From: a virus | Virus record (IMG/VR): IMGVR_UViG_3300046747_000228 | Direction: 5' to 3' (one strand) | Length of the DNA: 40,606 nucleotides | Part shown: positions 6,058-25,072 of the stretch, in pieces | How positions within the stretch are numbered: position 1 is the stretch's first letter | Layout: the number at the start of each line of letters is the position of its first letter | Notes under the pieces: model-generated | Seen by the model: the letters and a program-made list of their open reading frames with translations, nothing else | Database searches by the model: none | What the model was told of the DNA's origin: nothing | Program-made: the position numbers and the translations under genes

Positions 6058-6677
6058 GAAATTAGCCTTTCGAGGTCGGTATGCGTCACTTTCATGGGCG
6101 GTCGCGGGACGTCGATCCGCCAGGCGTACGCGAGATCGGCCTTCCATCCTGCCTTCGTGCCGACGAGCTCGGCCGGCCGCGACCACGTAGCGACCGCGCG
6201 TAGTGGCAGCTTCGCGAGGCGGATCGCGCAGCCTTCCGGGCCGTCGGCACCTTGCCAGTAGTGCGCCGAGACGCTCCACCCGAGCGAGATCGCGAGCCGG
6301 CCGAGCTTCGAAGCTTGCCGGCCGCCTCCCGCACCCGCGATCTCGGCCGGCGTACGCGGCGCCCGGGCCAGCACCCGCGGGCGAGTGTCGACCTGCCGCT
6401 CAGTGATCTGCCGCCCGGTGACCTGCTCGACGCGCGCCACGAGCTCGGCGTCGGTCATCGGAACGGACATCCCAAACCAGTCACGGCGCGCAACGGCCGG
6501 ATCAGGCTCACGGAATGTTGCCTGCCGCAACAAAAGCGGGAGCCCGGTTGTCTTGCTGATCCGGCCGCCGGGGCACGCCGGCGTATGTAGCGCCGGCACT
6601 TCACCGCAGGCGCACAGCGGGCACTTGCCGGCGTCGTGAGACGACCGGTCGTACCCGCAGGCGCCGCAACGGCTCAC
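6054..6677 (-). CDS. Hypothetical protein with an N-terminal Cys cluster
   Basis: 207-aa ORF. GTG 6677 overlaps the upstream stop (GTGA at 6674-6677). The N-terminus CGACGYDRSSHDAGKCPLCACGEVPALHTPAC is zinc-finger-like. Confidence 0.65.
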   Translation of the reverse strand: MSRCGACGYDRSSHDAGKCPLCACGEVPALHTPACPGGRISKTTGLPLLLRQATFREPDPAVARRDWFGMSVPMTDAELVARVEQVTGRQITERQVDTRPRVLARAPRTPAEIAGAGGGRQASKLGRLAISLGWSVSAHYWQGADGPEGCAIRLAKLPLRAVATWSRPAELVGTKAGWKADLAYAWRIDVPRPPMKVTHTDLERLIS

Positions 6678-6916
6678 TTACTGCGCCCCCATGCCGCGAG
6701 CAGGTAGAAGGTTCCGGCAACGGCCAAAGGCATCACGATGTCGATCGAGGGGAACGCCTCATCGATCCTGAGCAGCACGAACATGCTCAGCATCGACGCG
6801 ACTACGAGTACGCCCGGGGTCGGCCGCATGCTCGGCGGATCACGACGCACGTCGGGCAACGGCTGGCCGCGGCGAAGCGCCTCGACAGTCTCTTCGTACT
6901 CTTCGTCGGCGCCCAT
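6674..6916 (-). CDS. Small membrane protein
   Basis: 80-aa ORF with two hydrophobic stretches (VLVVASMLSMFVLL, VMPLAVAGTFYLLAAW). Its start overlaps the upstream stop by one base. Confidence 0.6.
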   Translation of the reverse strand: MGADEEYEETVEALRRGQPLPDVRRDPPSMRPTPGVLVVASMLSMFVLLRIDEAFPSIDIVMPLAVAGTFYLLAAWGRSK

Positions 6917-7098
6917 TAGGCGCTCGCCGGGTACGGATAGTTGAGCACTTCGTCGCCGAGGCAGCTAACGAGGTGCGCGGCGTCGTCACGCAGGTGCGCG
7001 CCGTCGGCCGCCGTCTCCTTGCTGTACGCCGCGGACGCGCCGCGCCGGCGGAGCGTCTCGAGCAGCTCGCGCGTACTGACGTCGTCGAGTTTCTTCAT
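6916..7098 (-). CDS. Hypothetical protein
   Basis: 60-aa ORF. ATG 7098 is preceded by GAAAGG. It is the first gene downstream of the promoter element at 7136-7159. Confidence 0.55.
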   Translation of the reverse strand: MKKLDDVSTRELLETLRRRGASAAYSKETAADGAHLRDDAAHLVSCLGDEVLNYPYPASA

Positions 7099-7135
7099 CG
7101 TCTACCTTTCGGATCAGAGCAGGAACGGAAGCGCA

Positions 7136-7159
7136 AACCTAGCAGGAAACATGCTAGGT
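7136..7159 (-). promoter_or_regulatory. CTAGG promoter/operator element in an inverted-repeat arrangement
   Basis: The plus strand reads ACCTAGCAGGAAACATGCTAGGT, two 10-bp arms matching 9/10 as an inverted repeat. The minus strand gives TGcTAGGTT about 40 nt upstream of ATG 7098. It sits just after the helicase stop at 7172. Confidence 0.5.
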
Positions 7160-7171
7160 CCACAAGCGGCA

Positions 7172-8782
7172 TCACGGCCACGTTTTCGGATCGAAGTGCT
7201 GAGCAGCCTTCGCGATCATCTGCTCGTCGAAAACCTCACCCTTCGTACGCCGGCCGCGGGCGCGCTCGCGGCGCCACGGAGCATCACGTTGCGCCTGCCA
7301 CATCGGCCGCTCGGCGACGAACTCGTCCCCCCGCGCCATGGCGTACCCGATCTCCATATCGGCTTGTATGAGCCCCTCGTGGCCGCGGTCGAAGGTCAGC
7401 CATCGCAGGTCATACCGATCAGCCGCGCCGCTCATGGCTGGCACGAGGAACACGAGACCCTGCGCGCCGGCCGGCACGAACCATCGGCCGCCCGGGGTGC
7501 GCAGCCACGAGGTGTGCGACTGGCCGAAGAGGTCGACGAGCTCGTGCGCGAGATCGCCGTCGGCGTACTCGATCGGCTCGGCATCGCCTACCGCGGTCTC
7601 CGAGCGGTCGTCGACCACCTCGGCGAGCACCTCATCGTCGTCGACCTCATACATGAGCAGATCGTCGGGCATGTCGTCCGGGCCGGGCGCTCCGCCGAGG
7701 CTGGCGAGGGTGGCGAGCTTATGCCGACCCGTGACCCCCGTGAAGTCGATGATCCAGCAGAACGCCTTACCCGGGTACAGCCGAAGCCCACGGCCAACCA
7801 TCTGCTGATATAGCGTGCTGCTCGAGGTCGGCCGCCCGAGCAGGATGCACCCGGTACTCGGCAGGTCGGTCCCCTCGGTGAACAGGCCGACGTTACAGAG
7901 CACGGTCACGCGGCCGGCCCGGTAGTCGTCGAGCGCCTGCGCGCGGACGGCGGCCGGCGTCGTGCCGTCGAGGTGCACCGCGGTAACGCCGGCGTCGTTG
8001 AACGCCTCGGCCTGCTCGATGCTCACGGCAACGGTGGGCAGGAAGGCGATCGTCGGGCACCCCTTCGCGTGCTCGACCCATGCCTCGACTATCCGCTGCG
8101 GCGCCATGGCGGCCGACATCGCGGCGCCGAGCGCCCCCGAGTTGTAGTCGCCCGCCACGCGAGCGACGCGCGTGAGGTCGAGGTCGGCGATTCGCACCCG
8201 GACGCCACGGGGCGGCACGAGGTACGGGGGGTCGCTGCGGATGAGGTCGATCAGCCCGACGCGCGGCTCGACGATCGCCTCGAAGACCTCGCCGAGCGCG
8301 CGGCCGTCGGAGCGGTCAAGGGTAGCGGTCACGCCGAGCACGAGCGGTCCGTCGACGTCGTACGCGCGCAGCTCGCGCAACACCCGCAGGTAGGTATCTG
8401 CGGTCGCGTGATGGGTCTCGTCGATGACGATCAACCCCCACGTCCGCGAGACGAGCAGCGGGAGTGTCGCCTTCGTGCTCGCCGTTTGGATCGACCCGAC
8501 GACGATCTCGGCCCGGTACTGCTTGACCGTTCCCTGCAGGCGACCGATACGGCGCCCGGGCGCGACCTGCTCGGCCTTATCGATCGCCTGGTCGATGAGC
8601 TCGGTACGGTGCGCGAGCCAGAGCACGGGGCGGCCGGCGGCGACCGACATCTCGGCGATGCTCATCGCGGTCGGAGTCTTCCCGCCCCCCGTGGCCATCA
8701 CCATCGCGATCCGGCGGTCGCCGCCCTGCCAGAGCTTGAGCGCTCCGTCGACTAATTCTTCCTGGTAAAGGCGAAGCTTCAC
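7172..8782 (-). CDS. SF2 DNA helicase (DEAD/DEAH, type III restriction res-subunit-like)
   Basis: 536-aa ORF with Walker A MATGGGKTPT, a DExH box VIDETHH, and later helicase motifs (TATLDR, LGRPTSSSTLYQQMVGRGLR). The GTG start overlaps the upstream stop (GTGA at 8779-8782). Confidence 0.85.
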   Translation of the reverse strand: MKLRLYQEELVDGALKLWQGGDRRIAMVMATGGGKTPTAMSIAEMSVAAGRPVLWLAHRTELIDQAIDKAEQVAPGRRIGRLQGTVKQYRAEIVVGSIQTASTKATLPLLVSRTWGLIVIDETHHATADTYLRVLRELRAYDVDGPLVLGVTATLDRSDGRALGEVFEAIVEPRVGLIDLIRSDPPYLVPPRGVRVRIADLDLTRVARVAGDYNSGALGAAMSAAMAPQRIVEAWVEHAKGCPTIAFLPTVAVSIEQAEAFNDAGVTAVHLDGTTPAAVRAQALDDYRAGRVTVLCNVGLFTEGTDLPSTGCILLGRPTSSSTLYQQMVGRGLRLYPGKAFCWIIDFTGVTGRHKLATLASLGGAPGPDDMPDDLLMYEVDDDEVLAEVVDDRSETAVGDAEPIEYADGDLAHELVDLFGQSHTSWLRTPGGRWFVPAGAQGLVFLVPAMSGAADRYDLRWLTFDRGHEGLIQADMEIGYAMARGDEFVAERPMWQAQRDAPWRRERARGRRTKGEVFDEQMIAKAAQHFDPKTWP

Positions 8783-9069
8783 GGGCCCACCTCAGCATCA
8801 AGCCTGTTCGCGAAGTCTCGCCAGCGGTTCCGACTAGCCGCGGCACGATCGAAGGCGTCACGTAGCTTGATGATCGTTATCTGCTGCTGCTCGACGAACT
8901 CGATGAGGGCATACGGGTCATCGGCCTCGATCCGCGCGTGCGCTGCGGCAATCGCCTGCGGCAACGGGATACCGACAAGTTGCTCCCACTCTTCGAGCGC
9001 GGTCACGGCGCGCTCGACCTCGGCGCGCAGGCGGTCGCGCTCGGCAATCAGAGCGTCAACCGTCGTCAT
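8779..9069 (-). CDS. Hypothetical protein, paralogous module shared with 9066..9461
   Basis: ATG 9069 overlaps the upstream stop (ATGA). The product contains EEWEQLVGIPLPQAIAAAHARIEADDPYAL, which matches AEWEALVGMPLPQAIAIAVARVDANQPYAL in the neighbouring gene. Confidence 0.6.
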   Translation of the reverse strand: MTTVDALIAERDRLRAEVERAVTALEEWEQLVGIPLPQAIAAAHARIEADDPYALIEFVEQQQITIIKLRDAFDRAAASRNRWRDFANRLDAEVGP

Positions 9070-9461
9070 CGCTCCCCGCATTCCACGTAGTGCTTCGTCC
9101 TGCTGCGCGCGCCGAGCAACACGGCCGCGACCTCGACCGCGCGACAGTCGCAGTGATGCTCAATCGGCTGCAGCGTTCGATAATTGCTCGGCGCGCCCTC
9201 CCGCTCACAGCAATCGCAGAGACCTTCACCGCGCTTACCCTCGACGTCGGCCGTCCGCTTCGCCCGCGCCCGCCACATGTTCCGGTCCTGTGCGAGCTTA
9301 TGGAACGCGCCGGTAAGCGCCTCATACGCCTCGCCGAGCGCGTATGGCTGATTGGCGTCGACCCGCGCGACGGCGATCGCGATTGCCTGCGGCAACGGCA
9401 TGCCGACGAGCGCCTCCCACTCGGCGAGCAGCGTTTGCGCGTGCTCGAGCTCGTCGCTCAC
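9066..9461 (-). CDS. Hypothetical protein, paralogous N-terminal module plus a Cys/His-rich C-terminus
   Basis: GTG 9461 overlaps the upstream stop (GTGA at 9458-9461). The C-terminus carries CDCCEREG...HHCDC. Confidence 0.6.
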   Translation of the reverse strand: MSDELEHAQTLLAEWEALVGMPLPQAIAIAVARVDANQPYALGEAYEALTGAFHKLAQDRNMWRARAKRTADVEGKRGEGLCDCCEREGAPSNYRTLQPIEHHCDCRAVEVAAVLLGARSRTKHYVECGER

Positions 9462-9613
9462 GAGATCAGCCCTTCCCACGTCCCGCCTGCAGCGACGACG
9501 GCGATAGCGAAACCGGCGACCATGCCGAGAATCAGCAGACCGAGACGCTGGTCGACGTAACGCAGCATGAGCCACCCGAAAACCATCACCAGAAATTCAA
9601 CGACCACGATCAT
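9458..9613 (-). CDS. Small membrane protein
   Basis: 51-aa product MIVVVEFLVMVFGWLMLRYVDQRLGLLILGMVAGFAIAVVAAGG has two hydrophobic helices. ATG 9613 shares one base with the upstream TGA. Confidence 0.55.
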   Translation of the reverse strand: MIVVVEFLVMVFGWLMLRYVDQRLGLLILGMVAGFAIAVVAAGGTWEGLIS

Positions 9614-9924
9614 CACGGCTCGTACCTCGGCTTCGGGTGTCCTGCCGTGCCGCAATGCTGAGCGATGACGCGCAGCATGTCGCCCGCCGTGCCGTCCCAC
9701 TCGAGCGTCTTGCCGCACGGGCAATAGATCTCATCACTCGGCACTTCCTCCTCGCTCGGACCCGTGCTGAACGAGTCGTACGAGAGCGGCCATTCGTAGT
9801 GATCCGCGCTCCAAACAAACAGGTGATCGCGGACAACATGCACCACCTTGTGTTGCCGGCCAGCCGGCACCCAGAGCTCGACGATCGGGTTACGCCATAC
9901 GGCGAAGCGAGTGTCGATGGTCAT
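9613..9924 (-). CDS. Hypothetical protein
   Basis: 103-aa product MTIDTRFAVWRNP.... ATG 9924 overlaps the upstream stop (ATGA at 9921-9924). Confidence 0.6.
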   Translation of the reverse strand: MTIDTRFAVWRNPIVELWVPAGRQHKVVHVVRDHLFVWSADHYEWPLSYDSFSTGPSEEEVPSDEIYCPCGKTLEWDGTAGDMLRVIAQHCGTAGHPKPRYEP

Positions 9925-10199
9925 GACGTCCACTCCTTCGGGTTGATCAGCTTCATGGGGAACCCGCCCGGGCGCTTGCTCGCCTTGAGGTGCTCGGCGC
10001 ACGCCGGCGGACCGTTGAGCCAGAGGCGGCCGACCGCCTCGGCGTACCGCTGCTCATGCCCTAGCTGAGCGCACCCCCAAGCGCGCCGCGGCTCGTCAAG
10101 GCGCGCTAGGCAGGTGTAGAGCTCCGGCCAGAGGGTTTTGATCAGCTCGCGTTTCGACTCGCTCTCGTTCGCGAAGATCGCGAACGGATCGCCGCTCAC
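9921..10199 (-). CDS. Hypothetical protein
   Basis: 92-aa product starting VSGDPFAIFANESE.... GTG 10199 overlaps the stop of the zinc-ribbon ORF (GTGA at 10196-10199). The upstream part of the 234-aa track ORF is Arg/Ser/Pro-rich junk. Confidence 0.55.
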   Translation of the reverse strand: MSGDPFAIFANESESKRELIKTLWPELYTCLARLDEPRRAWGCAQLGHEQRYAEAVGRLWLNGPPACAEHLKASKRPGGFPMKLINPKEWTS

Positions 10200-11633: not shown

Positions 11634-11700
11634 CGGCACTGCCTTTCGGGTTGGAGCGGGTGGAGATGTCAACCTAGCAGGAAACCTAGCAGGTTTGCAA
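11634..11700 (-). promoter_or_regulatory. Promoter/leader module, near-duplicate of 16018-16094 in the opposite orientation
   Basis: The minus strand reads TTGCAAACCTGCTAGGTTTCCTGCTAGGTTGACATCTCCACCCGCTCCAACCCGAAAGGCAGTGCCG followed by ATG. It holds two TGcTAGGTT elements 12 bp apart and then an SD-containing leader. Confidence 0.6.
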
Positions 11701-15987: not shown

Positions 15988-16010
15988 AAGCTAGCAGAAA
16001 ACCTAGCAGG
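15988..16010 (-). promoter_or_regulatory. Leftward promoter/operator (tandem element) of the divergent control region
   Basis: The minus strand reads CCTGCTAGGTTTTCTGCTAGCTT, followed by cgtcgc and the ATG. The second copy supplies TGcTAGCTT (TGnTAnnnT) at the right distance for a leaderless start. Confidence 0.5.
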
Positions 16011-16017
16011 GCGTCGA

Positions 16018-16094
16018 CATTGCGAACCTGCTAGGAATCCTGCTAGGTTGACATCTCCGCACCACAACGAACACCCGAAAGGCAGGGCCGGGGC
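16018..16094 (+). promoter_or_regulatory. Rightward promoter/leader module, near-duplicate of 11634-11700
   Basis: The plus strand reads CATTGCGAACCTGCTAGGAATCCTGCTAGGTTGACATCTCCGCACCACAACGAACACCCGAAAGGCAGGGCCGGGGC followed by ATG at 16095. There are two CCTGCTAGG copies (16027-16035 and 16039-16047), and the second gives TGcTAGGTT. Confidence 0.6.
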
Positions 16095-16319
16095 ATGACA
16101 CAGATCATCGAACAGGTCACGTACGTTCCGGTCCGGGGGTCGACGACCGTGGTCGTTCGCCCGCCTCGGGCATGCGGTCTCGCCGGATGCGTCGGCGAGC
16201 TCGAGGTTGCCGGCAAGCATGGCGACAGGACCATCGTTCACCTCGATGACGAGCAGCGACGCGTGCTGATCGAGGGTCTCGGCGGTCTGCCGCAGACCTA
16301 TGACCCGCGGGGGAGGTGA
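16095..16319 (+). CDS. Hypothetical protein, first rightward early gene
   Basis: 74-aa product MTQIIEQVTYVPVRGS..., with GAAAGG upstream. Confidence 0.65.
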   Translation: MTQIIEQVTYVPVRGSTTVVVRPPRACGLAGCVGELEVAGKHGDRTIVHLDDEQRRVLIEGLGGLPQTYDPRGR

Positions 16320-16324
16320 TTGGC

Positions 16325-16441
16325 ATGGTTCGCATCGTCATCGCTATCGCGCTGCTCGCCGCTCGTCTGCGGCTCGCGAAGTTGACGGCGCCCGCGGCGC
16401 CGGCGTACGTCGGGCGTCACTGGGCGCCGGGGGTCATCTGA
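16325..16441 (+). CDS. Small hydrophobic protein (below the track cut-off)
   Basis: Hand translation gives MVRIVIAIALLAARLRLAKLTAPAAPAYVGRHWAPGVI. GGGAGG lies upstream, third-position GC is far higher than in the overlapping 16300 frame, and its TGA shares a base with ATG 16441. Confidence 0.45.
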   Translation: MVRIVIAIALLAARLRLAKLTAPAAPAYVGRHWAPGVI

Positions 16442-17253
16442 TGGTCGCCGCTTTACAGATCACGTGCCCGTTCCTGCCCTGCCGCGGGCAATGGTGGGTC
16501 GGCGTCGGGCTCAGTGACACGGTACGTGTGCCGCAGCACAGTCCGATCGGTATGCCCGCGAGCTACACGGGGTGGCTGCCATGGTGCCCGGGCGCGAACA
16601 TGTTCGTCCGGAAGGACACGTCGCGCCCGTTCATCGAGCAGGACGTCGCGAAGCTGCAGCGCGCCCTGGCCGCTTATCAGGCGCGCGTCAAGGCGATCGC
16701 CGCAGGGACGGCCGACGGCGCACCGTACAAGCCTCTCGCCGCGGGCGAGTCGGTCGGCCGTCCGGTCGATCCGACCAACGAATACTTTCCGGGGCGGCCG
16801 GCCGATGCGCCGGAACCGAATCCTGGCGAGCGCCCCGAAATGCTCCCCTCGTGGGAGCTCGGAGGCGGACACCTAGGGGGAAGCGCAGTGGACAATTCGC
16901 ACAGCACTACGCAGGGGCTCGTCGGCCTCGCCATCAATCAGATGGGTCTGACACAGGATCTGCTCGCGCGGGTCACGTCGGCGCTCGATGAGGCCGAAGC
17001 GGTCGCGGTCGCGTCCGAGTCGCAGATCCGGACCGTTCAGTCGCTCGTCATGGCGGCCGTCGGCACGGGCGAGGGCGCGCCTCCGTCGGGTGAGCAGATG
17101 GCGGAGCATACGGCGCTCGCGGTCGACACGATCTCGGGCGACGCGAGCGTCGGCCTCGCGGTGCACCTCGCGAAGGTCCGCGCGGAGACGGCGAACAACC
17201 AAATTCTCGCCGCGGTTGCCAATGCTCAGGAATTTCTCCGGACGCTCAGCTAG
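16441..17253 (+). CDS. Hypothetical protein
   Basis: 270-aa product MVAALQITCPFLPCRGQWW... with a helical C-terminal half. The start was chosen on codon bias and stop/start overlap. Confidence 0.65.
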   Translation: MVAALQITCPFLPCRGQWWVGVGLSDTVRVPQHSPIGMPASYTGWLPWCPGANMFVRKDTSRPFIEQDVAKLQRALAAYQARVKAIAAGTADGAPYKPLAAGESVGRPVDPTNEYFPGRPADAPEPNPGERPEMLPSWELGGGHLGGSAVDNSHSTTQGLVGLAINQMGLTQDLLARVTSALDEAEAVAVASESQIRTVQSLVMAAVGTGEGAPPSGEQMAEHTALAVDTISGDASVGLAVHLAKVRAETANNQILAAVANAQEFLRTLS

Positions 17254-17513
17254 TGACGTACGAGGAAGTGCACGCGGGCGATCACGTGCTCGGTCATGAT
17301 GGCGATATCTGGGGAGTCGCCGAGATCGAGCACGTGCCGCGGATCGCTGTGACGCTCGTCAAGCCCGGGTGTCGCGTAACGGGTTACCCGCCTGCGGGCA
17401 CACCGGTCACTATCGTGGCTCGGTCCGACGTCACGGCCGAGCACGCGGCGGCCGGCGTACTGATCGCCGCGGGCTTCAACATCGACATCATTTCGGAGCA
17501 ATGGACACCGTAG
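17253..17513 (+). CDS. Hypothetical protein
   Basis: 86-aa ORF. GTG 17253 shares a base with the upstream TAG. Confidence 0.6.
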   Translation: MTYEEVHAGDHVLGHDGDIWGVAEIEHVPRIAVTLVKPGCRVTGYPPAGTPVTIVARSDVTAEHAAAGVLIAAGFNIDIISEQWTP

Positions 17514-17710
17514 TTTTTCTGCTCGGCGACCCGAACCGGGCGCTGCGAACCGTTCCGGTGGTACCCGGCCCCGAGCCGGCGGCCGTCGGTCCGTGCGTGG
17601 CGTGCGGCGACCGCGGGATGCGCGCTTGGAAGGTCGTCTCGGCCGTCGACTTGATCCTGTGCATCGACGCCGAGGGGTGCCGCGCACGATTCACGGAAGG
17701 GGAGAAATGA
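17501..17710 (+). CDS. Small Cys-containing hypothetical protein
   Basis: 69-aa product MDTVVFLLGDPNRALRT...CVACGDRG...CIDAEGC. It overlaps the previous gene by 13 nt. Confidence 0.5.
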   Translation: MDTVVFLLGDPNRALRTVPVVPGPEPAAVGPCVACGDRGMRAWKVVSAVDLILCIDAEGCRARFTEGEK

Positions 17711-18048
17711 CGCAGTACGGGCACGAGGGCCGGCACCATGGCGTCGGCACGCCGGATTGCCCTCGCGATCTTCACCACCATCACGACGAGCGTTGCGAGC
17801 GCCCGGGCGTTACCGCAGCACGAGCAGCCGTCGCGGCACTACGCGATCGTCGGCAACGGGCGCGCGAGACATTCCACGACGAATGGTCGCGGCGCGGCGT
17901 ATGCCTACGCGCCTGCGACGAAGCGATCGAGACGGCGACGCGCGTGCGCGTCACGCCCGAGCTCGTCGACGCATACGCGACCGCAGACAACATCGACGAC
18001 GGACTAGCCCGAGCGTTCGCCGCCGCGGGCTTCGAGGTCGAGGAATAG
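17707..18048 (+). CDS. His-rich hypothetical protein
   Basis: 113-aa product MTQYGHEGRHHGVGTPDCPRDLHHHHDERC.... It has an ATGA overlap at 17707-17710. Confidence 0.6.
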   Translation: MTQYGHEGRHHGVGTPDCPRDLHHHHDERCERPGVTAARAAVAALRDRRQRARETFHDEWSRRGVCLRACDEAIETATRVRVTPELVDAYATADNIDDGLARAFAAAGFEVEE

Positions 18049-18060
18049 GAAAGGGGAGAG

Positions 18061-19488
18061 ATGACGCAAATCGTACATAGCGCGCAAGCGCCGACACAGC
18101 GGCAGATGCCTACGGGCGGTCGTTGGGGGTGGTATACGGATCATGAGGGGCGCGAGTGGCGCCGCGTGTCGAAGCTCGTCAAATACGTCGAGACCGACAC
18201 GTACAACCTTGACCAGTGGATGAAGCGGCAGGTCGCCGAAGGGCTCGCGATCCGCGACGACCTCGTGCTCGCGGTCAAGGCCATGGGTCGCCCCGACGCG
18301 ACGCTCGGATGGTCGGACGCCGACAAGAAGAAGCTGAACGAGATCGCGCGGGACGCGATGAACGCTGCCAAGCAGGCCGACGGCGCCCGCAGCGGGACGG
18401 CGATGCACGATCTTACCGAGCGCCTCGACCGCGGCGAGAGCGTCGACAATGTGACGCGCGGGTTGCCGGCCGCCGCGGGTATGTCGCTGCGCGCCTATGC
18501 GTTCCTGCGCGAGGCGAACGGGTGGCGCAACGTCGAGATCGAGCGCACGGTCGTCGTCGACGAGCTCGAGGTTGCCGGCACCTTCGACCGCATCGACATC
18601 GTGCCCGGGCTCGTTTCCCTGCTCGGCCCGGGCTCGTGCCAGTACGGCGACGAGTGCCCCGACGTCGGCTTGCCCGGCCACGGGGATGCGGCCGTCGTCG
18701 ACGTCAAGACCGAAAAAGCGCCGTGGCTCAATGGCCTGCACATCGGTCCGCAGCTCGCGATCTACTCACGGGCTCAGCGGATGTGGGAACCGGACGGCAC
18801 GGTCGTTCCGCTGCTCTATGCCGACGGCCGGCCGAAGATGCGCGACGACGGCGCCGCGCCGCTCACGACGGCCGGCGGGCGCTACGTGCGGGTGCCGTGC
18901 GTTCGGCAGGATGTCGGCATCGTTGTGCACGTGCTCGACGGCGATGCCGTGCCGTACTTCATCAATCTGGCGGAGGGGTGGGGCGCGGCCGTCGCCGCCT
19001 ACGAGCAGATGCGGCGCGAGCAGCGGTCGAAGACTCGGCTCGGCGCGCCGGGTGCATGGTTCGTGCCCGTGCCGAACGTCAAGCGGCCGGCCGTCACGCA
19101 GATTTTCACCGAGCACGCGGTCGCGGCCGACTACGCAAATCCCGCGCGGCCGGCCGCCGGGGGCGCCGAGCAGGTCGCCGTTCGCGGCGTCGACGGATTG
19201 GTGCGATGGGAGGGCGAGGCGCCGGCCGAGAACGTCGCGACCCGCGGACCGCTCGATGAGGTCGACAAAAGCGCGATCGAGGCGATCTGGCTGGCGAACG
19301 TCGTCAACGGGGGCGACTGCTCGCTCTCGAAGATCTTCGAGATCTACACGGGGATGGGTCGCCTCTGGTCCGGTCGAGTCGCCGAGGCGGCGACCGCGCG
19401 GCGTCGGCAACTTGAATGCCCACAGCGTGCGCTTCACGTCGGCGCGGGCAAGTGCGCGTGCGGGTGGGTTACGGGCGTCGCACCGTAG
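18061..19488 (+). CDS. PD-(D/E)XK nuclease (RecB/Cas4-like exonuclease) with a long C-terminal extension
   Basis: 475-aa ORF with a strong SD (GGAAAGGGGAGAG). Motifs GTFDRIDIV, AAVVDVKTEK and QLAIYS follow the D...D/ExK...QxxxY pattern of RecB-family nucleases. The C-terminus has Cys clusters (CQYGDEC, ECPQ...CAC). Confidence 0.6.
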   Translation: MTQIVHSAQAPTQRQMPTGGRWGWYTDHEGREWRRVSKLVKYVETDTYNLDQWMKRQVAEGLAIRDDLVLAVKAMGRPDATLGWSDADKKKLNEIARDAMNAAKQADGARSGTAMHDLTERLDRGESVDNVTRGLPAAAGMSLRAYAFLREANGWRNVEIERTVVVDELEVAGTFDRIDIVPGLVSLLGPGSCQYGDECPDVGLPGHGDAAVVDVKTEKAPWLNGLHIGPQLAIYSRAQRMWEPDGTVVPLLYADGRPKMRDDGAAPLTTAGGRYVRVPCVRQDVGIVVHVLDGDAVPYFINLAEGWGAAVAAYEQMRREQRSKTRLGAPGAWFVPVPNVKRPAVTQIFTEHAVAADYANPARPAAGGAEQVAVRGVDGLVRWEGEAPAENVATRGPLDEVDKSAIEAIWLANVVNGGDCSLSKIFEIYTGMGRLWSGRVAEAATARRRQLECPQRALHVGAGKCACGWVTGVAP

Positions 19489-19493
19489 CCGGA

Positions 19494-19515
19494 CCTGCTA
19501 GGTACCTGCTAGATT
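19494..19515 (+). promoter_or_regulatory. Tandem CTAGG promoter/operator element
   Basis: The plus strand reads CCTGCTAGGTACCTGCTAGATT. The second copy gives TGcTAGATT. It lies about 105 nt upstream of ATG 19623. Confidence 0.45.
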
Positions 19516-19525
19516 TAAGGTCCGT

Positions 19526-19565
19526 CCCGCGGCTCAGTGGTTACAGAACGTCACAGGGCCGCGGG
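19526..19565 (+). other. Stem-loop in the leader of the 19623 gene
   Basis: Perfect 8-bp arms CCCGCGGC (19526-19533) and GCCGCGGG (19558-19565) with a 24-nt loop. Confidence 0.3.
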
Positions 19566-19622
19566 GCGCCAAACCTCGGGTTGTTCCGACCCACCGAATC
19601 AAGATCCGAGAATCGAGGAACG

Positions 19623-20426
19623 ATGTCTCAGCCCAATCCGTTCGCGGCCGGCACGCCGGTCGCCCCGCAGCAGCAGGCGCCCGCGGCCAACCCCTTCGGC
19701 GCGCCCGCCCCTGCGCAGCAGCAGGCGCCCGCGGCCAACCCCTTCGGCGCCCCTGCTGCCCCCCAGCAGCAGGCGCCGGCCGCGCCGCAGGCGTACGCGC
19801 CGCAGCAGCAGTACGCGCCGCAGGCGCCCGCTCAGCAGGCGTACGCGCCCGCCGCGGCGCAGCAGCAGACCGCAGCGCCCGCGCTCGGTCCGGTCGGGGG
19901 CGCTGCGGCGCCCGTGGTCGGCGAGGGCCGCGGCCCTAAGTTGCCCGACATGTACGGCCGCCTCCTGCTCGTCATGCCGCAGCGCCTCGAGAACGTGCCG
20001 CGGCGCCCCGAGCACATCACGGCCGAGCAGCGCGCGGCCGGCAACGTCAACCAGGACAAGATGACCGCCACCATCGTCATCCTCGACGCCGGCCGCGTCG
20101 GCGACTACTCGCCGATCTGGTTTGGCGGAAACCCGCACGCGCTCGGCGGTACCCCGCACACGGAGTCCGCTGCGCTTCCCTACGTCCGTAAAGGCATGTG
20201 GCTCAATCAGTCGCGCCTCATCTCGCAGGCGCGCGACTATCTGCCCGGGGGCGCGCACGCCGGCCCGAACGGGGCGCCCGGGATGGTTTGCGGCCGACTC
20301 GTCAAGACCGGTCCGGGCGCCAACGACCCGTGGTACCTGACGACGCCGACCGACGAAGAGGTCGCGCTCGCCAACGCCTACGTCGGGCTCGTCGCGAACG
20401 GGCAGTACCCGAACCCTCTCGCGTGA
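19623..20426 (+). CDS. Hypothetical protein with an N-terminal Q/A/P-rich NPF(G/A) repeat region
   Basis: 267-aa product MSQPNPFAAGTPVAPQQQAPAANPFGAPAPAQQQAPAANPFGAP..., with GAGG upstream. The globular C-terminal half was not recognised. It sits between the nuclease and RusA. Confidence 0.7.
   Translation: MSQPNPFAAGTPVAPQQQAPAANPFGAPAPAQQQAPAANPFGAPAAPQQQAPAAPQAYAPQQQYAPQAPAQQAYAPAAAQQQTAAPALGPVGGAAAPVVGEGRGPKLPDMYGRLLLVMPQRLENVPRRPEHITAEQRAAGNVNQDKMTATIVILDAGRVGDYSPIWFGGNPHALGGTPHTESAALPYVRKGMWLNQSRLISQARDYLPGGAHAGPNGAPGMVCGRLVKTGPGANDPWYLTTPTDEEVALANAYVGLVANGQYPNPLA
19668..19790 (+). repeat. In-frame tandem repeat with a 48-bp period
   Basis: The 35-mer CAGCAGCAGGCGCCCGCGGCCAACCCCTTCGGCGC is exact at 19668-19702 and 19716-19750. 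A degenerate third unit starts near 19765. Confidence 0.85.
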
Positions 20427-20893
20427 TCCTGACCATTCGGGCGATCGGCCGCCCCGCGCCGCAGGGTTCGAAGGAGCTCGGCAGTGCGGGGCAGGTCATC
20501 GAGTCGAGCCCGTACCTGCCAGCGTGGCGGCAGTGCGTGCGCATCGCCGCCTTCCGGGCGTACGCCGCGGCGCGCATCGATCCCGCGACACTCCCAGTGT
20601 TCGCGGTCGGCCGCCCCGTGCACATCGAGCGCGTGACGTTCTACCTCATCCGCGGGCAGCAGGGGGGCGCGGCCGAGAGCGCCGAGCCGGTAGGCGACCC
20701 CGATATCGACAAGCTGCTGCGCTCGACGCTCGACGCGCTCGGCGGCCGGCGTGACAAGTTCAAAACGGCGAAGCTCTTCGCCGACGATTCACAGGTGACA
20801 AAGATCAATGGGCCGCTCGAAAAGGTGTGGGCAATCTCGCCGCAGACCGCGGGCGCCACGATCATCATTTCCGATGGGAGAGATCAACAATGA
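20423..20893 (+). CDS. rusA: RusA-like Holliday junction resolvase
   Basis: 156-aa ORF whose GTG overlaps the upstream TGA (GTGA at 20423-20426). GRPAPQGSK, DPDIDKLLRSTLDAL and ADDSQV match RusA family motifs. Confidence 0.75.
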   Translation: MILTIRAIGRPAPQGSKELGSAGQVIESSPYLPAWRQCVRIAAFRAYAAARIDPATLPVFAVGRPVHIERVTFYLIRGQQGGAAESAEPVGDPDIDKLLRSTLDALGGRRDKFKTAKLFADDSQVTKINGPLEKVWAISPQTAGATIIISDGRDQQ

Positions 20894-21321
20894 CGGACGT
20901 CTACCGCGTGCTCGTCGTGCGCGAAAATACCGGGTCGCTGAGCGAGGTGCTCTTCGAAGCCGCGAGCCCGGACGCCGACCGCCTGCTCGACTACGCGCCG
21001 GCCGAGGTCGTCGTCGCGCTCACGGCCGTGAGCCAGCGTGCCGAGGTCCTCACGTCCGAGGCAGTCATGAGCGCACTCCCGGCGCCTCAGCCCGTCGACG
21101 AGCCCGTCGAGGCGGCCGACGACAAGCCGAAGCGCACGCGGCGCACGAAGGCCGAGATCGCCGCGGCGAAGGCGGCCGGCGTGACTGTGTCGACGAGCTT
21201 CGAGGGCGCCGTCCCCGTGCCGACGAGCCCGTTGCCGGCCGAGGCGTCGTCTCCGCTCGCCGAGCCGTTGCCGCAGGAGGCGCCCGCGCCGGCGGCCGGC
21301 GTCTTCAATCCGTTCGCCTAG
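20890..21321 (+). CDS. Hypothetical protein, last gene of the rightward arm
   Basis: 143-aa ORF with an ATGA overlap at 20890-20893. It has a basic KPKRTRRTKAEIAAAKAAG segment and a Pro/Ala-rich tail that ends in GVFNPFA. Confidence 0.65.
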   Translation: MTDVYRVLVVRENTGSLSEVLFEAASPDADRLLDYAPAEVVVALTAVSQRAEVLTSEAVMSALPAPQPVDEPVEAADDKPKRTRRTKAEIAAAKAAGVTVSTSFEGAVPVPTSPLPAEASSPLAEPLPQEAPAPAAGVFNPFA

Positions 21322-21551
21322 TTGCCGGCCGTCTCGACGACCGACGGCGAATCACCCGGGCCGAGAGGCGCGCTCGCGATGCTCGTGACGACCGAGAGCA
21401 CGAAGCCCGTGAGCGCGCCGAGCCCGAGCGCCTCGAGCGCGCCGAGGTCGAGGATGTTGAACGTCGCGGCGCCCATGGCCGCGACGGCGAGCTGGGCGGC
21501 AGTCTTTACCGCGCGCTCGAAAGTCTCTTTCCAAAACTGCCGCTTCATCAT
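21318..21551 (-). CDS. Holin-like membrane protein (r1t/LL-H-type by eye)
   Basis: 77-aa product MMKRQFWKETFERAVKTAAQLAVAAMGAATFNILDLGALEALGLGALTGFVLSVVTSIAS.... The FWK..ER..KTAAQ signature and two hydrophobic helices resemble r1t-type holins. A TTG at 21572 is an alternative start. Confidence 0.5.
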   Translation of the reverse strand: MMKRQFWKETFERAVKTAAQLAVAAMGAATFNILDLGALEALGLGALTGFVLSVVTSIASAPLGPGDSPSVVETAGN

Positions 21552-21570
21552 GTCGCGAGCGTACCGCGAC

Positions 21571-21583
21571 AATGCCTAGCAGA
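21571..21583 (-). promoter_or_regulatory. Degenerate single copy of the CTAGG element
   Basis: The minus strand reads TCTGCTAGGCATT, about 20 nt upstream of ATG 21551. The -10 candidate TAGGCA lacks the final T. Confidence 0.3.
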
Positions 21584-21587
21584 ACTT

Positions 21588-21609
21588 CCCGCGACCAACC
21601 GGTCGCGGG
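21588..21609. other. Strong hairpin between divergent genes
   Basis: Perfect 9-bp arms CCCGCGACC (21588-21596) and GGTCGCGGG (21601-21609) with a 4-nt loop. It lies 22 nt upstream of ATG 21632. Confidence 0.5.
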
Positions 21610-21631
21610 CAGGAAAGAACGAAGGGGAAAC

Positions 21632-22636
21632 ATGATCAGCAAGCTGAGAGCCGCACTCGTCGTGCTGCTGCTCGCCGCGGGGATCACGGGAGGTACGGCG
21701 ATCATGCCGATCGCCTCCGCCGAGGCGGTCGGACACGCGAGTGGGCACATCGTCCCCCCGGGTGCCGGCGGTAGCGCGCACGCGGCTAAGGCGAAGGCCC
21801 TGACCGCGTTCAATGGCGCGGGTTACTACTACGCCGGCGGATCGCAGACCTACGGCGGAACCGATTTCAGCCGCGGGCTCGGCGCCAACATCTTCATTTC
21901 GAAGCCATTCGTGCCGAACACGCCCAACGGGGGCGGCACCTATGACCACTCCCTGCTGGACTTGATCGTCAACGAAACGACCTCGGGCGTAGCGGGTAAC
22001 GCCATGGAGGCGTTCGTTGCCGTCGAGCCGAACGTGTGGGGGAACTTCAACCCGCACCTCGGCGTCTGCGCGTGGCATAACAGCGTTGACAATGGTTGCT
22101 ATACCGGCGGCACCAACTGGATCGACAACCCTGCCAACCCGCTCAATCTCGGCGCCGACCTGTCCGCCGATATCGGCACGGGTAAGTCGTTGATCATCGT
22201 GTACGCCTCGACCGGGTGCGGCACTGCGTCTACCGGATGGTGGGTGCAATACGCGGGAACGTACGTCGGTTGCTACACGCCGGCCGCGTTCGGCGGATCC
22301 ACGTGGTCGACGGCGAAGTTCGTTCAGGCCGACGGCGAGTACTACTACAACGGGGTGAATCACCCTGGCACGAGCAACGACAAGCCGTGCGGCGACCTCG
22401 GGAACGGCTTGTACCCGGGCACGGGCGCGGGATACATCGCGAGCCTGTCGACCGTCAACCCGTCCCCGGCCGGACTGGTCTCGTCGTTCACCTTGCACCC
22501 GGACACCGATTCGGGGGCCTATAGCGCGAACTGGACGGTACCGGGCAGCACCACGCGGAGCATCTACATCGGGGGCGCCGGCTACAAGTTCGTGAGCGGT
22601 GTGGCAACCCTGCCCGGTACCGCCGGGTCCTGCTAG
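21632..22636 (+). CDS. Secreted neprosin-like (DUF239/glutamic peptidase-like) protein
   Basis: 334-aa ORF with SD GAAGGGG. It has a Sec-type signal peptide, MISKLRAALVVLLLAAGITGGTAIMPIASA|EA. The mature part follows the neprosin-domain order: HSLLDLIV, NAMEAFVAVEPNVWGNFNPHL, GCYTGG, GWWVQYAGTYVGCYTPAAF, ADGEYYY. Recognised by eye, no search run. Confidence 0.5.
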   Translation: MISKLRAALVVLLLAAGITGGTAIMPIASAEAVGHASGHIVPPGAGGSAHAAKAKALTAFNGAGYYYAGGSQTYGGTDFSRGLGANIFISKPFVPNTPNGGGTYDHSLLDLIVNETTSGVAGNAMEAFVAVEPNVWGNFNPHLGVCAWHNSVDNGCYTGGTNWIDNPANPLNLGADLSADIGTGKSLIIVYASTGCGTASTGWWVQYAGTYVGCYTPAAFGGSTWSTAKFVQADGEYYYNGVNHPGTSNDKPCGDLGNGLYPGTGAGYIASLSTVNPSPAGLVSSFTLHPDTDSGAYSANWTVPGSTTRSIYIGGAGYKFVSGVATLPGTAGSC

Positions 22637-22986
22637 CAGGTACTCGCAGGCGGAGCAGGATGCGCCGCGCGGACGTCGTCAGTGTGCCTACGCGCCTCGA
22701 CGTCCGCGCGGCGTAGCTCGAGCCCGCTCGGTCCCCCCGGCTGCGGACCGTTGACGAGCGCGGCGTCGGCGCGCCGCTCGGCGTCCGTGGCATCGGAAAT
22801 GATCACGGTGCGCGCGGCGTCTGCCCGCTGCTGATCGGCGAGGCATCGGATGAAGCTCTGCTGTTGCATGCCGAGCCACCCGACGGCGATGAACGCGACG
22901 AGCGCGAGCAGGGTCGTTATCGCGCGCATGGTCGGCGTGCCGGCCCATGCCAGCCAGCGGGGTGGATCCTCCGGGAGGCCGGTCAT
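22633..22986 (-). CDS. Membrane-anchored protein, last gene of the lysis cassette
   Basis: 117-aa ORF with one N-terminal TM helix (AITTLLALVAFIAVGWLG) and a charged helical ectodomain. It has an ATGA overlap at 22983-22986. Confidence 0.6.
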   Translation of the reverse strand: MTGLPEDPPRWLAWAGTPTMRAITTLLALVAFIAVGWLGMQQQSFIRCLADQQRADAARTVIISDATDAERRADAALVNGPQPGGPSGLELRRADVEARRHTDDVRAAHPAPPASTC

Positions 22987-23114
22987 CGATCCCCCCGCGG
23001 CGGCCGGCGGGCGTCATGCCTCGCCAGCCACACGCGGCCGGCAACGCCTACCGATGACCACACGACGAGCCACGCGAGAGCGTCGGCCGCGTACTTCGGG
23101 TCGAATCCGCTCAT
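22983..23114 (-). CDS. Small membrane protein
   Basis: 43-aa product MSGFDPKYAADALAWLVVWSSVGVAGRVWLARHD.... It has ATGA overlaps at both ends (23111-23114 and 22983-22986). Confidence 0.5.
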   Translation of the reverse strand: MSGFDPKYAADALAWLVVWSSVGVAGRVWLARHDARRPPRGDR

Positions 23115-23347
23115 GGTCGGTCGCCTTCCTTTTCGGTCGGGTCGGCCTTCGGCACCTCGGCCGTTCGGATAGGACTTGCCCTTTTCCGGGCGATCGTATC
23201 GCCACCCGAAAGGGCAAGCCACAGGGCCGCAGGGAAGCCGACGATCACGGCGCTCGGTATCTGCTGCAGCCAGAGCGACACGGCGACGATGCCGAGCCAC
23301 GCGAGCATGCCGACGAGCAGGACAAAAAGGCGCGCCCACTGCGGCAT
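23111..23347 (-). CDS. Holin-like two-TM membrane protein
   Basis: 78-aa product MPQWARLFVLLVGMLAWLGIVAVSLWLQQIPSAVIVGFPAALWLALSGG... with a charged tail, preceded by GAGGGG. It is the first gene after the endolysin-like gene. The longest ORF starts at GTG 23386. Confidence 0.55.
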   Translation of the reverse strand: MPQWARLFVLLVGMLAWLGIVAVSLWLQQIPSAVIVGFPAALWLALSGGDTIARKRASPIRTAEVPKADPTEKEGDRP

Positions 23348-23457
23348 GCTCGACCGCCCCTCTATCGCAAGATCGGCCCGCCGCACACAGACCGTGACGG
23401 CGGGCCGTTAAGAGAAACATAAACGTTCCAGTAACGAAGCGGCAGGGGGGTCGCTAC

Positions 23458-24333
23458 TTACTTCGCGGCAGTCGCGAGCGCTTGCCGGATAGCGTCCAAA
23501 ACTTCCTTGGCGGTCTCGGCGGGGATCGCCTGCAGCGCAACGATCATCGCATCCGTCATGGCGGCCGGAGTCAGGCCCGCCAAGATCGCCTGCGCGATGG
23601 CTGCCTCATCGGCTAAGTCTCGGCCCGCCAGTTCGCTGACCATCGAGACAAGCTGCACGATACGCTGCGCCATCAGGTTGACTACCTGATACGCCTTCTC
23701 TTGCTGCCCCTCACCGTTCGGGATGCCGTGATACCACACGTCAAGCCCGGTCTTACTGGTCGCCGCGCCAGGCAATGCCGGATCCGGCATGTCTGTGCGC
23801 GTAAAGAACTTATTCAGTGCGTTTGTAACATCCTCTTCGCTCACGTCATCTCCAAACTTGTCGACGATTCCCCACGGCCGCGTGTCGGCCTCTTTCGCAC
23901 TGTCGTAGTCCGCGCTGAAATGCGCGTGCTCATCGTGCGGCGACGCTCCGGTATACGGCTCTTCGGCCCACCCGGTCCGGTAGTCCCATGTCCGACGCCG
24001 GTAGATGATGTACCGGAGGCGCCCGCGGTCGGTGCCGACGCTCTCGTCCTTCCGGCACTCACCGAGCAGGAACTGAATGATCTTTTCCATCGGATCGCTA
24101 CCGAGGTCAGGCCGGTTGAGGTCGTTGTCGACGTCGATCGCGTGAACCTCATTAACGCCGTCCGCGTCGTGAATCGGAACCTTGCCCGTCTCGTCCGGGT
24201 TGTGGTCCGATGACTCTTTCGAGTGTGCGTCGTCACCCTTGCTACCGTCCGACGCATGATCGCGGTTCGGAGCGATCCGATCGAACTCAGCGAAGAGCGT
24301 CTTCAAGCAGGGTATGAGCACCCAATCAGCCAT
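23458..24333 (-). CDS. Putative endolysin (zinc-peptidase-like N-terminal domain)
   Basis: 291-aa ORF positioned between the tail genes and the small membrane proteins. The N-terminus carries ASDGSKGDDAHSKESSDHNPDE...VHAIDVD...HDEHAHFS, a His/Asp pattern reminiscent of LAS/M15-type peptidoglycan peptidases. The call rests on position plus motif only. Confidence 0.5.
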   Translation of the reverse strand: MADWVLIPCLKTLFAEFDRIAPNRDHASDGSKGDDAHSKESSDHNPDETGKVPIHDADGVNEVHAIDVDNDLNRPDLGSDPMEKIIQFLLGECRKDESVGTDRGRLRYIIYRRRTWDYRTGWAEEPYTGASPHDEHAHFSADYDSAKEADTRPWGIVDKFGDDVSEEDVTNALNKFFTRTDMPDPALPGAATSKTGLDVWYHGIPNGEGQQEKAYQVVNLMAQRIVQLVSMVSELAGRDLADEAAIAQAILAGLTPAAMTDAMIVALQAIPAETAKEVLDAIRQALATAAK

Positions 24334-24358: not shown

Positions 24359-25072
24359 CTAGAGGAAGCTCGTCACGATGATCGCGCCGTTGTTCCCGTT
24401 GCCGCCATTGAGGGCCGAGCTCGACGCGATCTGTGACGCGCCGCTACCGCCTCCCCCGTACACCTTGCCAGACTGCCCCGCACCGCTCGTGTTCCCGTAG
24501 GCCGACCCCCCGATGATGGAAGCGCCACCGTCGCCGCCGCGCTGCCCTCCGGCCGTCGAAAAGAATCCGTGCCCCGAGCCACCCGCGCGGCCAGGGACGC
24601 GGAACGTGCCGCCCGTGCCGCCCGTGCCGCCCTGGCGCGACGAAGTGTTCGCCGAGAGTTGCCCGATCGTCGAGGTCGCCGCACGAACCGCCCCGCCTCC
24701 GCCTCCGCCTGCAGTGATAAGCGGCGTGGTGCCGAAGCTGCTAGTGCCGCCGTTCGGGCCGGCCCCCGTGCCGCCCGTACCCCCGGCGCCGACGGAGAGC
24801 GATTCCGTCGAGCCGAGATCGTCGGCGTCGATCCAATCGGACGCGTACTCGCCGCTACCGCCGCCGTCCCCGTGCGACCACTGTGAGGCGCCCGTAGCGC
24901 CCGCTCCGCCACCCGCGCCCCCGGCACCGATCACTTCGACGTGCACGAGCTTGGCGCCGGCGGGCTTCGTCCACGTGCCCGCGCCGCTCGTCGTGAAGAT
25001 TTGGATGTCCGGCGCGGCGGCCGACATTGCGTTATCGGCGAACGTCGGGTCGCCTGCGTCGATCAGTCCCAT
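24359..25072 (-). CDS. Glycine-rich minor tail protein
   Basis: 237-aa ORF with long GGxGG tracts (GAGGAGGGAGATG, GGTGGTGGT, GGGGSGAS), typical of the Gly-rich tail-tip proteins of actinophages. It follows the large minor tail protein. Confidence 0.65.
   Translation of the reverse strand: MGLIDAGDPTFADNAMSAAAPDIQIFTTSGAGTWTKPAGAKLVHVEVIGAGGAGGGAGATGASQWSHGDGGGSGEYASDWIDADDLGSTESLSVGAGGTGGTGAGPNGGTSSFGTTPLITAGGGGGGAVRAATSTIGQLSANTSSRQGGTGGTGGTFRVPGRAGGSGHGFFSTAGGQRGGDGGASIIGGSAYGNTSGAGQSGKVYGGGGSGASQIASSSALNGGNGNNGAIIVTSFL

Follow-up and report, generated by a model that had tools for sequence, protein, structure and literature searches.

The locus at the junction of two converging arms

The stretch of DNA analysed here, referred to as the window, is a complete 40.6-kb phage contig (40,606 nucleotides, 67% G+C; IMG/VR record IMGVR_UViG_3300046747_000228), and our subject is a gene at its arm junction coding for a secreted protein related to the plant peptidase neprosin. 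The tail and lysis genes are transcribed leftward from about 39.5 kb down to 22633, and a short rightward arm, which includes an exonuclease and a RusA-like gene, runs from 16300 to 21321. Two open reading frames (ORFs) lie back to back between these ends, a rightward one of 334 amino acids (aa) and a leftward one of 77 aa coding for a holin-like protein (Table 1). An initial annotation made from the sequence alone had placed both ORFs and both arm ends at these same coordinates, and all of them are borne out. The palindrome CTAG is present at both 21318–21321 and 22633–22636, and the stop codons of convergent genes overlap there, with TAG read on both strands. Because its TerL is about 60% identical to the TerLs of Tsukamurella, Gordonia, and Mycobacterium phages, we take the window to be an actinophage. 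No DNA match to the peptidase/holin region was found among the deposited phage genomes of INPHARED.

A predicted glutamic peptidase of the neprosin family

The initial annotation recognised the 334-aa product as neprosin-like from an ordered series of sequence blocks, and all of these are present in that order: HSLLDLIV (residues 106–113), NAMEAFVAVEPNVWG (123–137), GCYTGG (155–160), GWWVQY..VGCYTPAAF (202–220), and ADGEYYY (233–239). The window protein matches the Pfam family Neprosin (PF03080) with 28.6 bits against a cutoff of 22, and so do 18 of 19 close relatives (best E 7.6e-19) and 121 of 139 distant relatives; the best E value for this family among relatives is 2e-33. A word-indexed search of 5.8 billion proteins returned only 22 relatives, nearly all of them unnamed metagenomic proteins, of which 19 were aligned. 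An exhaustive profile search gave 725 cluster representatives at E ≤ 1e-3, 33 of them at E ≤ 1e-30, and a set of 169 sequences was assembled from the close relatives together with representatives from this search. When the profile of 19 relatives was compared with the PDB a single sequence matched, that of mature neprosin (7ZVB/7ZVC, E 1.4e-9), over chain residues 17–252 of 261. The family profile was needed for this match, as the window sequence alone gave only a spurious capsid match in the PDB (E 0.028). Identity to neprosin is about 20%, and no family in NCBIfam or PHROGs is matched.

Structural comparison gives the same assignment, to the 7+7 antiparallel beta-sandwich of the neprosin catalytic domain. 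The AlphaFold2 (AF2) model has a core predicted local distance difference test (pLDDT) score of about 90, with a mean of 69, and neprosin accounts for all of its top five Foldseek matches in the PDB (E 1.4e-9 to 2.9e-8), with template modelling scores (TM-scores) of 0.64–0.66 on the mature neprosin chains. These are followed by a gap, and then by lectins and glycoside hydrolase family 16 (GH16) enzymes at E > 1e-3. An alternative is that the protein is a beta-sandwich of the lectin or GH16 kind, either non-catalytic or carbohydrate-active, with wall polysaccharide as its ligand or substrate: the sandwich is concanavalin-like, the lectins and GH16 glucanases ranked below neprosin have E values of 1e-3 to 1e-2, and within PF03080 only plant neprosin has been characterised. 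However, homology at the sequence level is to neprosin only, and two near-invariant glutamates fall on the neprosin dyad and on two different strands, not in a GH16-type ExDxxE motif on one strand. We consider this alternative very unlikely.

Mutation of the glutamates E188 and E297 abolishes neprosin activity (PMC9343461). In the neprosin chain the N-x-S/T sequons at indices 17 and 24 correspond to N145 and N152 of the published numbering, which confirms that index plus 128 gives the residue number, and Glu126 and Glu236 of the window protein therefore lie opposite E188 and E297. The proposal that glutamates occupy both catalytic positions holds across the family, as both are invariant in all 19 close relatives and kept in 167 of the 169 sequences; E236 is the sole fully invariant column in the 139-sequence alignment. 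Glu126 is on a strand modelled with a pLDDT of about 90. The branch also has a near-invariant residue of its own, H106, as well as Cys253 and the C-terminal Cys334. The phage clade has a specific loop, NNPGTSNDKP, directly after the strand carrying E236 (window residues 243–252, modelled with low pLDDT), and a conserved C-terminal tail, GYKFVSGVATTPGNxGSC (residues 320–334), with an almost universal terminal cysteine. Ratios of nonsynonymous to synonymous substitution (dN/dS) between peptidase copies are 0.13–0.25, and the gene is therefore maintained by purifying selection. Taken from sequence and fold comparisons, the assignment of the product as a prokaryotic/phage member of the neprosin ('eelysin', PF03080) glutamic peptidases is strongly supported.

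A secretory N-terminus and no pro-domain

The N-terminus of the peptidase has two K/R residues, a hydrophobic segment at residues 9–25 (mean Kyte–Doolittle hydropathy 2.2), and then ASA/AEA; no further hydrophobic segment is found in the protein by hydropathy. An N-terminus of this kind (2–3 K/R, a hydrophobic stretch, and AxA) is present in 19 of 19 close relatives and 158 of the 169 sequences. The Sec signal peptide noted at the outset is thus confirmed as a secretory N-terminus, but not its proposed ASA|EA cleavage site: cleavage after A32 (AEA|VG) is at least as likely, because the signal peptides of homologues end in A-Q-A opposite A30-E31-A32. The pre-protein is predicted from these features to be exported by Sec and cleaved near A32|V33.

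In most homologues the conserved core (FNGAGYYY...) begins right after the A-Q-A signal-peptidase site, and a linker of 25–30 residues follows the signal peptide in the window protein and four others of the 19-relative alignment. The neprosin pro-domain Neprosin_AP (PF14365) was matched neither by the window protein nor by any of the 139 relatives scanned.

Distribution in phages and bacteria

The peptidase gene is present on about 20 metagenomic phage contigs, and every contig carrying a close-clade gene that is long enough to judge is phage-like. Searching the INPHARED genomes by tblastn with three different family members gave no homologue, and the hallmark motifs of the phage clade (close clade, ≥ 45% identity) were found in 0 of 185,579 species genomes in GTDB. 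The viral structure library BFVD yielded no neprosin homologue, only generic jelly rolls with a TM-score of about 0.3, and a literature search found no paper connecting neprosin with phages. The earlier statement that no phage role has been described for this domain is thus upheld.

Distant cellular relatives, 25–30% identical, were found in at least 40 species genomes with a hand-made degenerate DNA pattern. They are mostly from Actinoplanes, Paractinoplanes, Krasilnikovia, and other Micromonosporaceae, and also from Jatrophihabitans, Nocardioides, and some Saccharibacteria; those inspected are in ordinary chromosomal contexts. The Saccharibacteria/Patescibacteria genomes (L123, L139, L150, and L156; about 49% G+C), which belong to episymbionts of the candidate phyla radiation, carry neprosin-family homologues at loci of which three of four were confirmed by tblastn, L150 being the exception. 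These could reflect exchange with actinobacterial hosts.

The neprosin structure paper describes orthologues as restricted to plants, and an earlier preprint counted 50 bacterial Pfam entries for the family. With homologues found widely among Actinomycetota as well as their phages, the Glu–Glu 'eelysin' dyad would not be a plant innovation, contrary to the published restriction. The initial annotation gave the family as G3, which could not be confirmed in the literature searched: neprosin goes there under MEROPS U74 or 'eelysin', and it is the strawberry mottle virus peptidase that defines G3. What is new is a known enzyme family in an undescribed carrier, a phage, and in an undescribed architecture that lacks a zymogen.

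The peptidase gene occupies several genomic contexts

Across the phage contigs the peptidase gene is found in at least five different contexts, to which a scan of metagenomes contributed few more. The commonest carriers are 41–43-kb phages, with at least 12 contigs in which the gene lies in line between a gene for a TerS-like helix-turn-helix protein and TerL. Within this group the peptidases have a median amino acid identity of 59%, compared with 83% and 89% for the flanking genes, and between individual pairs the flank/peptidase/flank identities are 97/63/96 (L010 and L011) and 99/69/98 (L014 and L017). In a 57-kb phage (L002–L004) the gene is reversed against all of its neighbours. In L018 the GTG start of the gene and the TGA stop of an endolysin homologue overlap (GTGA), with 2-transmembrane-segment (2-TM) and 1-TM genes next, such that the peptidase gene there is predicted to be translationally coupled and to lie between endolysin and holin.

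A phage fragment (L009) has a backbone 65–79% identical to window positions 2344–10193 and a peptidase copy that is 90% identical in nucleotides (core dN 0.028). Its copy is flanked by homologues of window genes 5431–6279 and 4806–5345 and lies two genes upstream of TerS, with a hairpin and TAAGCT just upstream and a different strong hairpin (–33 kcal/mol) just downstream. Conversely, two relatives of the window (L019 and L102) lack the peptidase at the arm junction and have reversed DNA-methyltransferase genes instead. In L019 this is a 253-aa gene (4201–4962, minus strand) with a DPPY motif and a weak D12 methylase match (E 0.029), and in L102 a C5-methyltransferase gene (7989–9647, minus strand) with LLPTP repeats. 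As different reversed genes occupy the same junction in the three genomes, the junction is a cargo slot, and a cargo hot spot. The initial reading of the locus as a moron-like insertion is sustained by the different site in the related L009 phage and by the other reversed gene in the slot of a syntenic phage; on these placements, together with its divergence beyond that of the flanking genes in the commonest carriers and the strong hairpins directly 3' of it in the window and L009, the peptidase gene is a single-gene mobile cassette among soil actinophages. Its composition is the same as that of the genome (G+C at third codon positions 0.84; G+C profile).

The holin-like gene as a probable part of the lysis set

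The r1t-type holin assignment of the 77-aa product is well founded, with a full-length match to PF16945 (76.4 bits against a cutoff of 26.9, E 1.8e-21) and a match to the 'holin' family phrog_443 (E 7.5e-17). An upstream TTG at 21572 would extend the protein to 84 aa. Its separation from the lysis cassette, put initially at about 1.5 kb, is an approximation, as the gene starts 1.08 kb away from the cassette end, with the end of the 2-TM holin candidate about 1.56 kb away.

The initial annotation treated the two genes as a divergent accessory pair and suggested holin-assisted export or release of the enzyme. Taken as a two-gene module whose holin-like member serves to release or activate the peptidase, this would accord with their adjacent and divergent arrangement and with the 80-bp control region, including a hairpin, that they have in common. 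However, an r1t holin is found in the flanks of 0 of 18 peptidase loci, and the peptidase in 0 of 80 r1t-holin loci in IMG/VR. Moreover, at the syntenic L019 locus a holin 72% identical to that of the window is in the same position and adjoins an unrelated reversed gene. Nor is a holin needed for export, since the peptidase has its own Sec signal peptide. The pairing is not sustained, and we regard a two-gene module as highly improbable.

Gene order places the holin-like gene with the backbone instead. In both the window and L019 it is downstream of the lysis block and on the same strand, with one reversed gene between; the order in L019 is tail, endolysin, 2-TM, 1-TM, the reversed 253-aa gene, r1t holin, a converging homologue of 20827–21321, and RusA. 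L102 has the same endolysin, 2-TM, and 117-aa genes, then a different multi-TM gene, which holds the terminal position, and then the reversed C5-methyltransferase gene. Because the holin-like gene is in the same place in L019, with a methyltransferase-like gene in the peptidase slot, we read it as a backbone lysis gene, its product being a putative terminal membrane protein of the lysis set and not a partner of the peptidase. For annotation, this means that an r1t-type holin gene would still count as part of the backbone lysis set when a reversed cargo gene stands between it and the lysis block.

Hairpins and putative control elements around the peptidase gene

The perfect 9-bp hairpin reported between the two genes (CCCGCGACC/GGTCGCGGG, at 21588–21596 and 21601–21609) is present, with a folding energy of –21.1 kcal/mol (z –3.1 relative to shuffled sequences), and neither L009 nor L019 has it in common with the window. 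A CTAGG word described as a degenerate element is also there, as a single copy at 21575–21579 on the minus strand; its status as a motif did not hold up, since the window has 30 copies against 28.4 expected and the word is thus at chance. Some CTAGG copies are in pairs or triplets at gene boundaries or in intergenic regions (16002–16047, 4805–4820, 11673–11689, and 7138–7158), and such clusters might belong to a longer regulatory motif.

Approximately 35 bp upstream of the holin-like gene, including the CTAGG, are conserved between the window and L019. Actinobacterial promoters have TANNNT –10 elements, and leaderless mRNAs occur in these bacteria. The hexamer TACGCT, six nucleotides (nt) before the holin ATG and identically spaced in L019, would give the holin-like gene its own –10-like element, placed for a leaderless transcript.

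On the other side, a perfect 16-bp inverted repeat begins 27 nt past the peptidase stop (–55.4 kcal/mol, z –5.2), within the 3'-terminal part of the convergent gene for the 117-aa protein. The repeat was not found at the homologous positions of L102 and L019, both of which lack the peptidase. It is written into codons for RRADV...DVRAA, and the L102 counterpart has a similar peptide and no repeat. This stem-loop is a probable terminator of the peptidase transcript, judged by its position and folding, and it may have evolved inside the coding sequence after the peptidase gene arrived.

A probable role in lytic growth

We think it probable that the gene encodes a Sec-exported neprosin-type glutamic peptidase, carried as a mobile cassette and without the holin-like protein as a partner, that has an envelope or surface role in the lytic phase. 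In this proposal the cassette would have entered, in reverse, a cargo slot bordered by the lysis block (endolysin, 2-TM holin, and 1-TM protein) and by the terminal r1t-type holin-like gene. The exported product would fold outside the membrane as a beta-sandwich of about 30 kDa with six cysteines, in which Glu126 and Glu236 would form a dyad that activates water, in the manner of E188 and E297 of neprosin. Made in lytic growth, it would cut a protein of the host's envelope or surface layer, and this cleavage would aid release or destroy receptors, in contrast to a lysogenic-conversion factor. Action outside the membrane late in infection is the most likely course.

The main opposing proposal is lysogenic conversion, with a moron expressed from its own promoter in the prophage and a secreted protease that gives the lysogen a benefit in nutrition or competition, presumably like that conferred by the chromosomal homologues in Actinoplanes. 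In keeping with this, both the window and the 57-kb phage have the gene in the opposite orientation to all that surround it, hairpins lie on both sides of it, and its distant homologues are chromosomal secreted proteins, one of which (L155) is beside a pair resembling an extracytoplasmic function (ECF) sigma and anti-sigma factor, as read from translations. However, neither an integrase nor a repressor was found among the window ORFs scanned, which do not include all of the small ORFs. The phage-clade motifs are absent from the 185,579 species genomes, where prophages of temperate carriers should show, and most copies are co-directional and tightly packed in lytic operons. Lysogenic conversion is thus distinctly unlikely. 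A role in lytic growth is favoured because most copies are inside lytic operons, one is endolysin-coupled, no integrase is found, and sequenced genomes contain no prophage copy.

Several observations weigh against the proposed lytic-phase peptidase. By itself the window protein scores modestly on Pfam Neprosin (E 1e-6), and the TM-score of its model to neprosin is moderate (0.53 on the query and 0.66 on the target, with the mean pLDDT of 69). In the hidden Markov model (HMM) alignment second-shell residues of neprosin are replaced (Q173 by D/E, W175 by I/A, and Y214 by V): Q173 corresponds to D110 in the window protein (E in 141 of 169 sequences), W175 to I112 (A in most), and T186 to A/T/I, and H134 and Y136 fall outside the aligned region. 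The post-proline specificity and acid pH optimum of neprosin are therefore not transferable. There is also no pro-domain by which an exported protease would be kept harmless. As for expression, the window gene runs opposite to the late operon, and a scan of 20700–23500 for consensus sigma-70 promoters and U-tract terminators found none. Only two of about eight contexts adjoin lysis genes, most copies being beside packaging genes, and failure to find an integrase does not prove a lytic lifestyle.

A broader proposal, possible but rather unlikely, is that actinophages of filamentous soil actinomycetes use a Sec-exported glutamic peptidase without a pro-domain as a new egress or host-surface enzyme, the protease counterpart of the mycobacteriophage lysis protein LysB. 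If so, it would either break down an outer layer made of protein during lysis or eliminate the protein receptors of infected cells and debris, and the rapid allelic turnover of the gene (59% identity, compared with 83–89% for its flanks) would represent adaptation to variable host surface proteins.

If active, the protein would extend the neprosin ('eelysin') glutamic peptidases to phages for the first time and provide a rare example of a phage-encoded protease exported by the host Sec machinery, and it would imply an actinomycete envelope protein target important for phage release or adsorption. Members of the neprosin family are under development as oral glutenases. The prokaryotic and phage branch, with about 700 clusters that keep the Glu–Glu dyad without a pro-domain, offers small zymogen-free scaffolds, and it bears on the origin of the plant family.

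The lysis block, probable host, and other features of the window

The lysis block itself contains the probable endolysin, a 2-TM holin candidate, and a 117-aa membrane protein (Table 1), the last of which has a homologue in L102 and analogues in L019 and L018. The N-terminal domain of the endolysin matches no Pfam, PHROG, or NCBIfam family and has 1608 homologues, some fused to PG_binding_1, with 66% identity in Paractinoplanes/Actinoplanes genomes and 43% in phage phiAsp2. The best fold match of its AF2 model (pLDDT 84) is the C-terminal peptidase domain of VldE (E 5.5e-3, TMt 0.57–0.67); the pneumococcal VldE domain is a zinc L,D-endopeptidase. The domain has an invariant SDH...HAID...HxxHxH pattern. 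Sequence and model suggest an endolysin catalytic domain that is common among soil actinophages but has gone unannotated. Since endolysin homologues occur in Paractinoplanes and Actinoplanes genomes and cellular relatives of the peptidase are concentrated in Actinoplanes and its allies, the host is probably Actinoplanes-like (Micromonosporaceae).

The product of 19416–20426 (plus strand) has a long P/Q/A-rich, gliadin-like region of low complexity (PQQQAPAANPFGAP repeats) before a conserved C-terminal domain; it has a homologue in L102 and no family match. A link between the peptidase and this P/Q-rich protein was considered and ruled out, since the latter has the sequence of a cytoplasmic protein and L102 encodes a homologue of it but no peptidase. 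The glycine-rich protein encoded at 24359–25072 (minus strand; Pfam Gly_rich_2, E 7e-10) lies between a large tail protein and the endolysin, and in both L019 and L102 this position is taken by an unrelated 150-aa gene.

Table 1. Features of the window, by position, with the evidence for each
Feature	Coordinates	Strand	Basis
Portal gene	34-1551	-	window
TerL gene	1552-3357	-	window
TerS gene	4308-4778	-	window
Helicase gene and primase-like gene		-	window
r1t-type holin-like gene, 77 aa; hydrophobic segments at about residues 18-34 and 42-58	21318..21551	-	PF16945, phrog_443, hydropathy
Divergent intergenic region of holin-like and peptidase genes, 80 bp	21552..21631	.	sequence
-10-like hexamer TACGCT of holin-like gene	21558..21563	-	window/L019 comparison
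Perfect 9-bp hairpin, 4-nt loop; peptidase 5' leader or operator region	21588..21609	+	sequence, folding
Ribosome-binding-site-like GAAGGGG, upstream of peptidase gene	21622-21628		sequence
Neprosin-like (PF03080) secreted glutamic-peptidase gene, 334 aa	21632..22636	+	ORF, Pfam, profile, Foldseek, dN/dS
Peptidase signal peptide, about residues 1-32	21632-21727	+	N-terminal sequence features
Peptidase parts: variable linker, residues 33-59; catalytic beta-sandwich, about residues 60-320; conserved C-terminal tail ending in Cys334			
Glu126 codon, equivalent of neprosin catalytic E188	22007..22009	+	HMM alignment, opposite chain residue 60
Glu236 codon, equivalent of neprosin catalytic E297	22337..22339	+	HMM alignment, opposite chain residue 169
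Last gene of contiguous lysis block, 117 aa; one N-terminal TM segment and charged tail	22633..22986	-	ORF, hydropathy
Perfect 16-bp inverted repeat, 19-nt loop	22663..22713	+	folding
2-TM holin candidate, likely start M14 at 23347	23111..23386	-	hydropathy, weak Phage_holin_3_6 match, L102 homologue
Probable endolysin gene, 291 aa; N-terminal zinc-peptidase-like domain	23458..24333	-	homologues, AF2 model

Comparison with known systems

The characterised protein closest to the predicted phage peptidase is neprosin of Nepenthes x ventrata (PDB 7ZU8/7ZVA/7ZVB/7ZVC), with which it has in common a homologous catalytic beta-sandwich, the positions of the Glu–Glu dyad, secretion, and a high cysteine content. 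Neprosin, however, has an all-beta pro-domain with a Lys-plug that makes it a pH-switched zymogen, which the phage protein lacks, and the phage protein differs further in its bacterial Sec signal peptide, its phage-encoded origin, the NNPGTSNDKP loop, the ...PGNxGSC tail, and the second-shell replacements. The uncharacterised secreted PF03080 proteins of Actinoplanes, Micromonosporaceae, and other Actinomycetota, and of Saccharibacteria, are similarly composed of a signal peptide and a catalytic domain with H106, E126, E236, C253, and the C-terminal cysteine. These cellular proteins are 25–30% identical to the window protein, are in chromosomal non-phage contexts in the examples inspected, and lack the phage-clade loop, the columns of window residues 246–250 being gaps in about 137–140 of the 169 sequences. 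The eqolisins (MEROPS G1; scytalidoglutamic peptidase, PDB 2IFW) resemble the phage protein in the overall sandwich and the position of the general-base glutamate, with 2IFW at Foldseek rank 35 (E 0.027), but they use a Gln–Glu dyad whereas the neprosin family uses Glu–Glu.

With respect to gene position, phage morons are similar in that a single gene is present, absent, or relocated among related genomes, is reversed in two backbones, and is bracketed by hairpins; the peptidase gene differs from them in having no compositional difference, no consensus promoter or terminator in our scan, and no evidence of a temperate lifestyle. The likeness to mycobacteriophage LysB, whose gene is between lysA and the holin gene, is a positional analogy only: the L018 peptidase lies between endolysin and holin, and the window copy adjoins the lysis block. 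LysB is a cutinase-like serine esterase whose substrate is mycolyl-arabinogalactan, whereas the phage protein has a Sec signal and is homologous to glutamic peptidases, and most of its copies are outside lysis cassettes.

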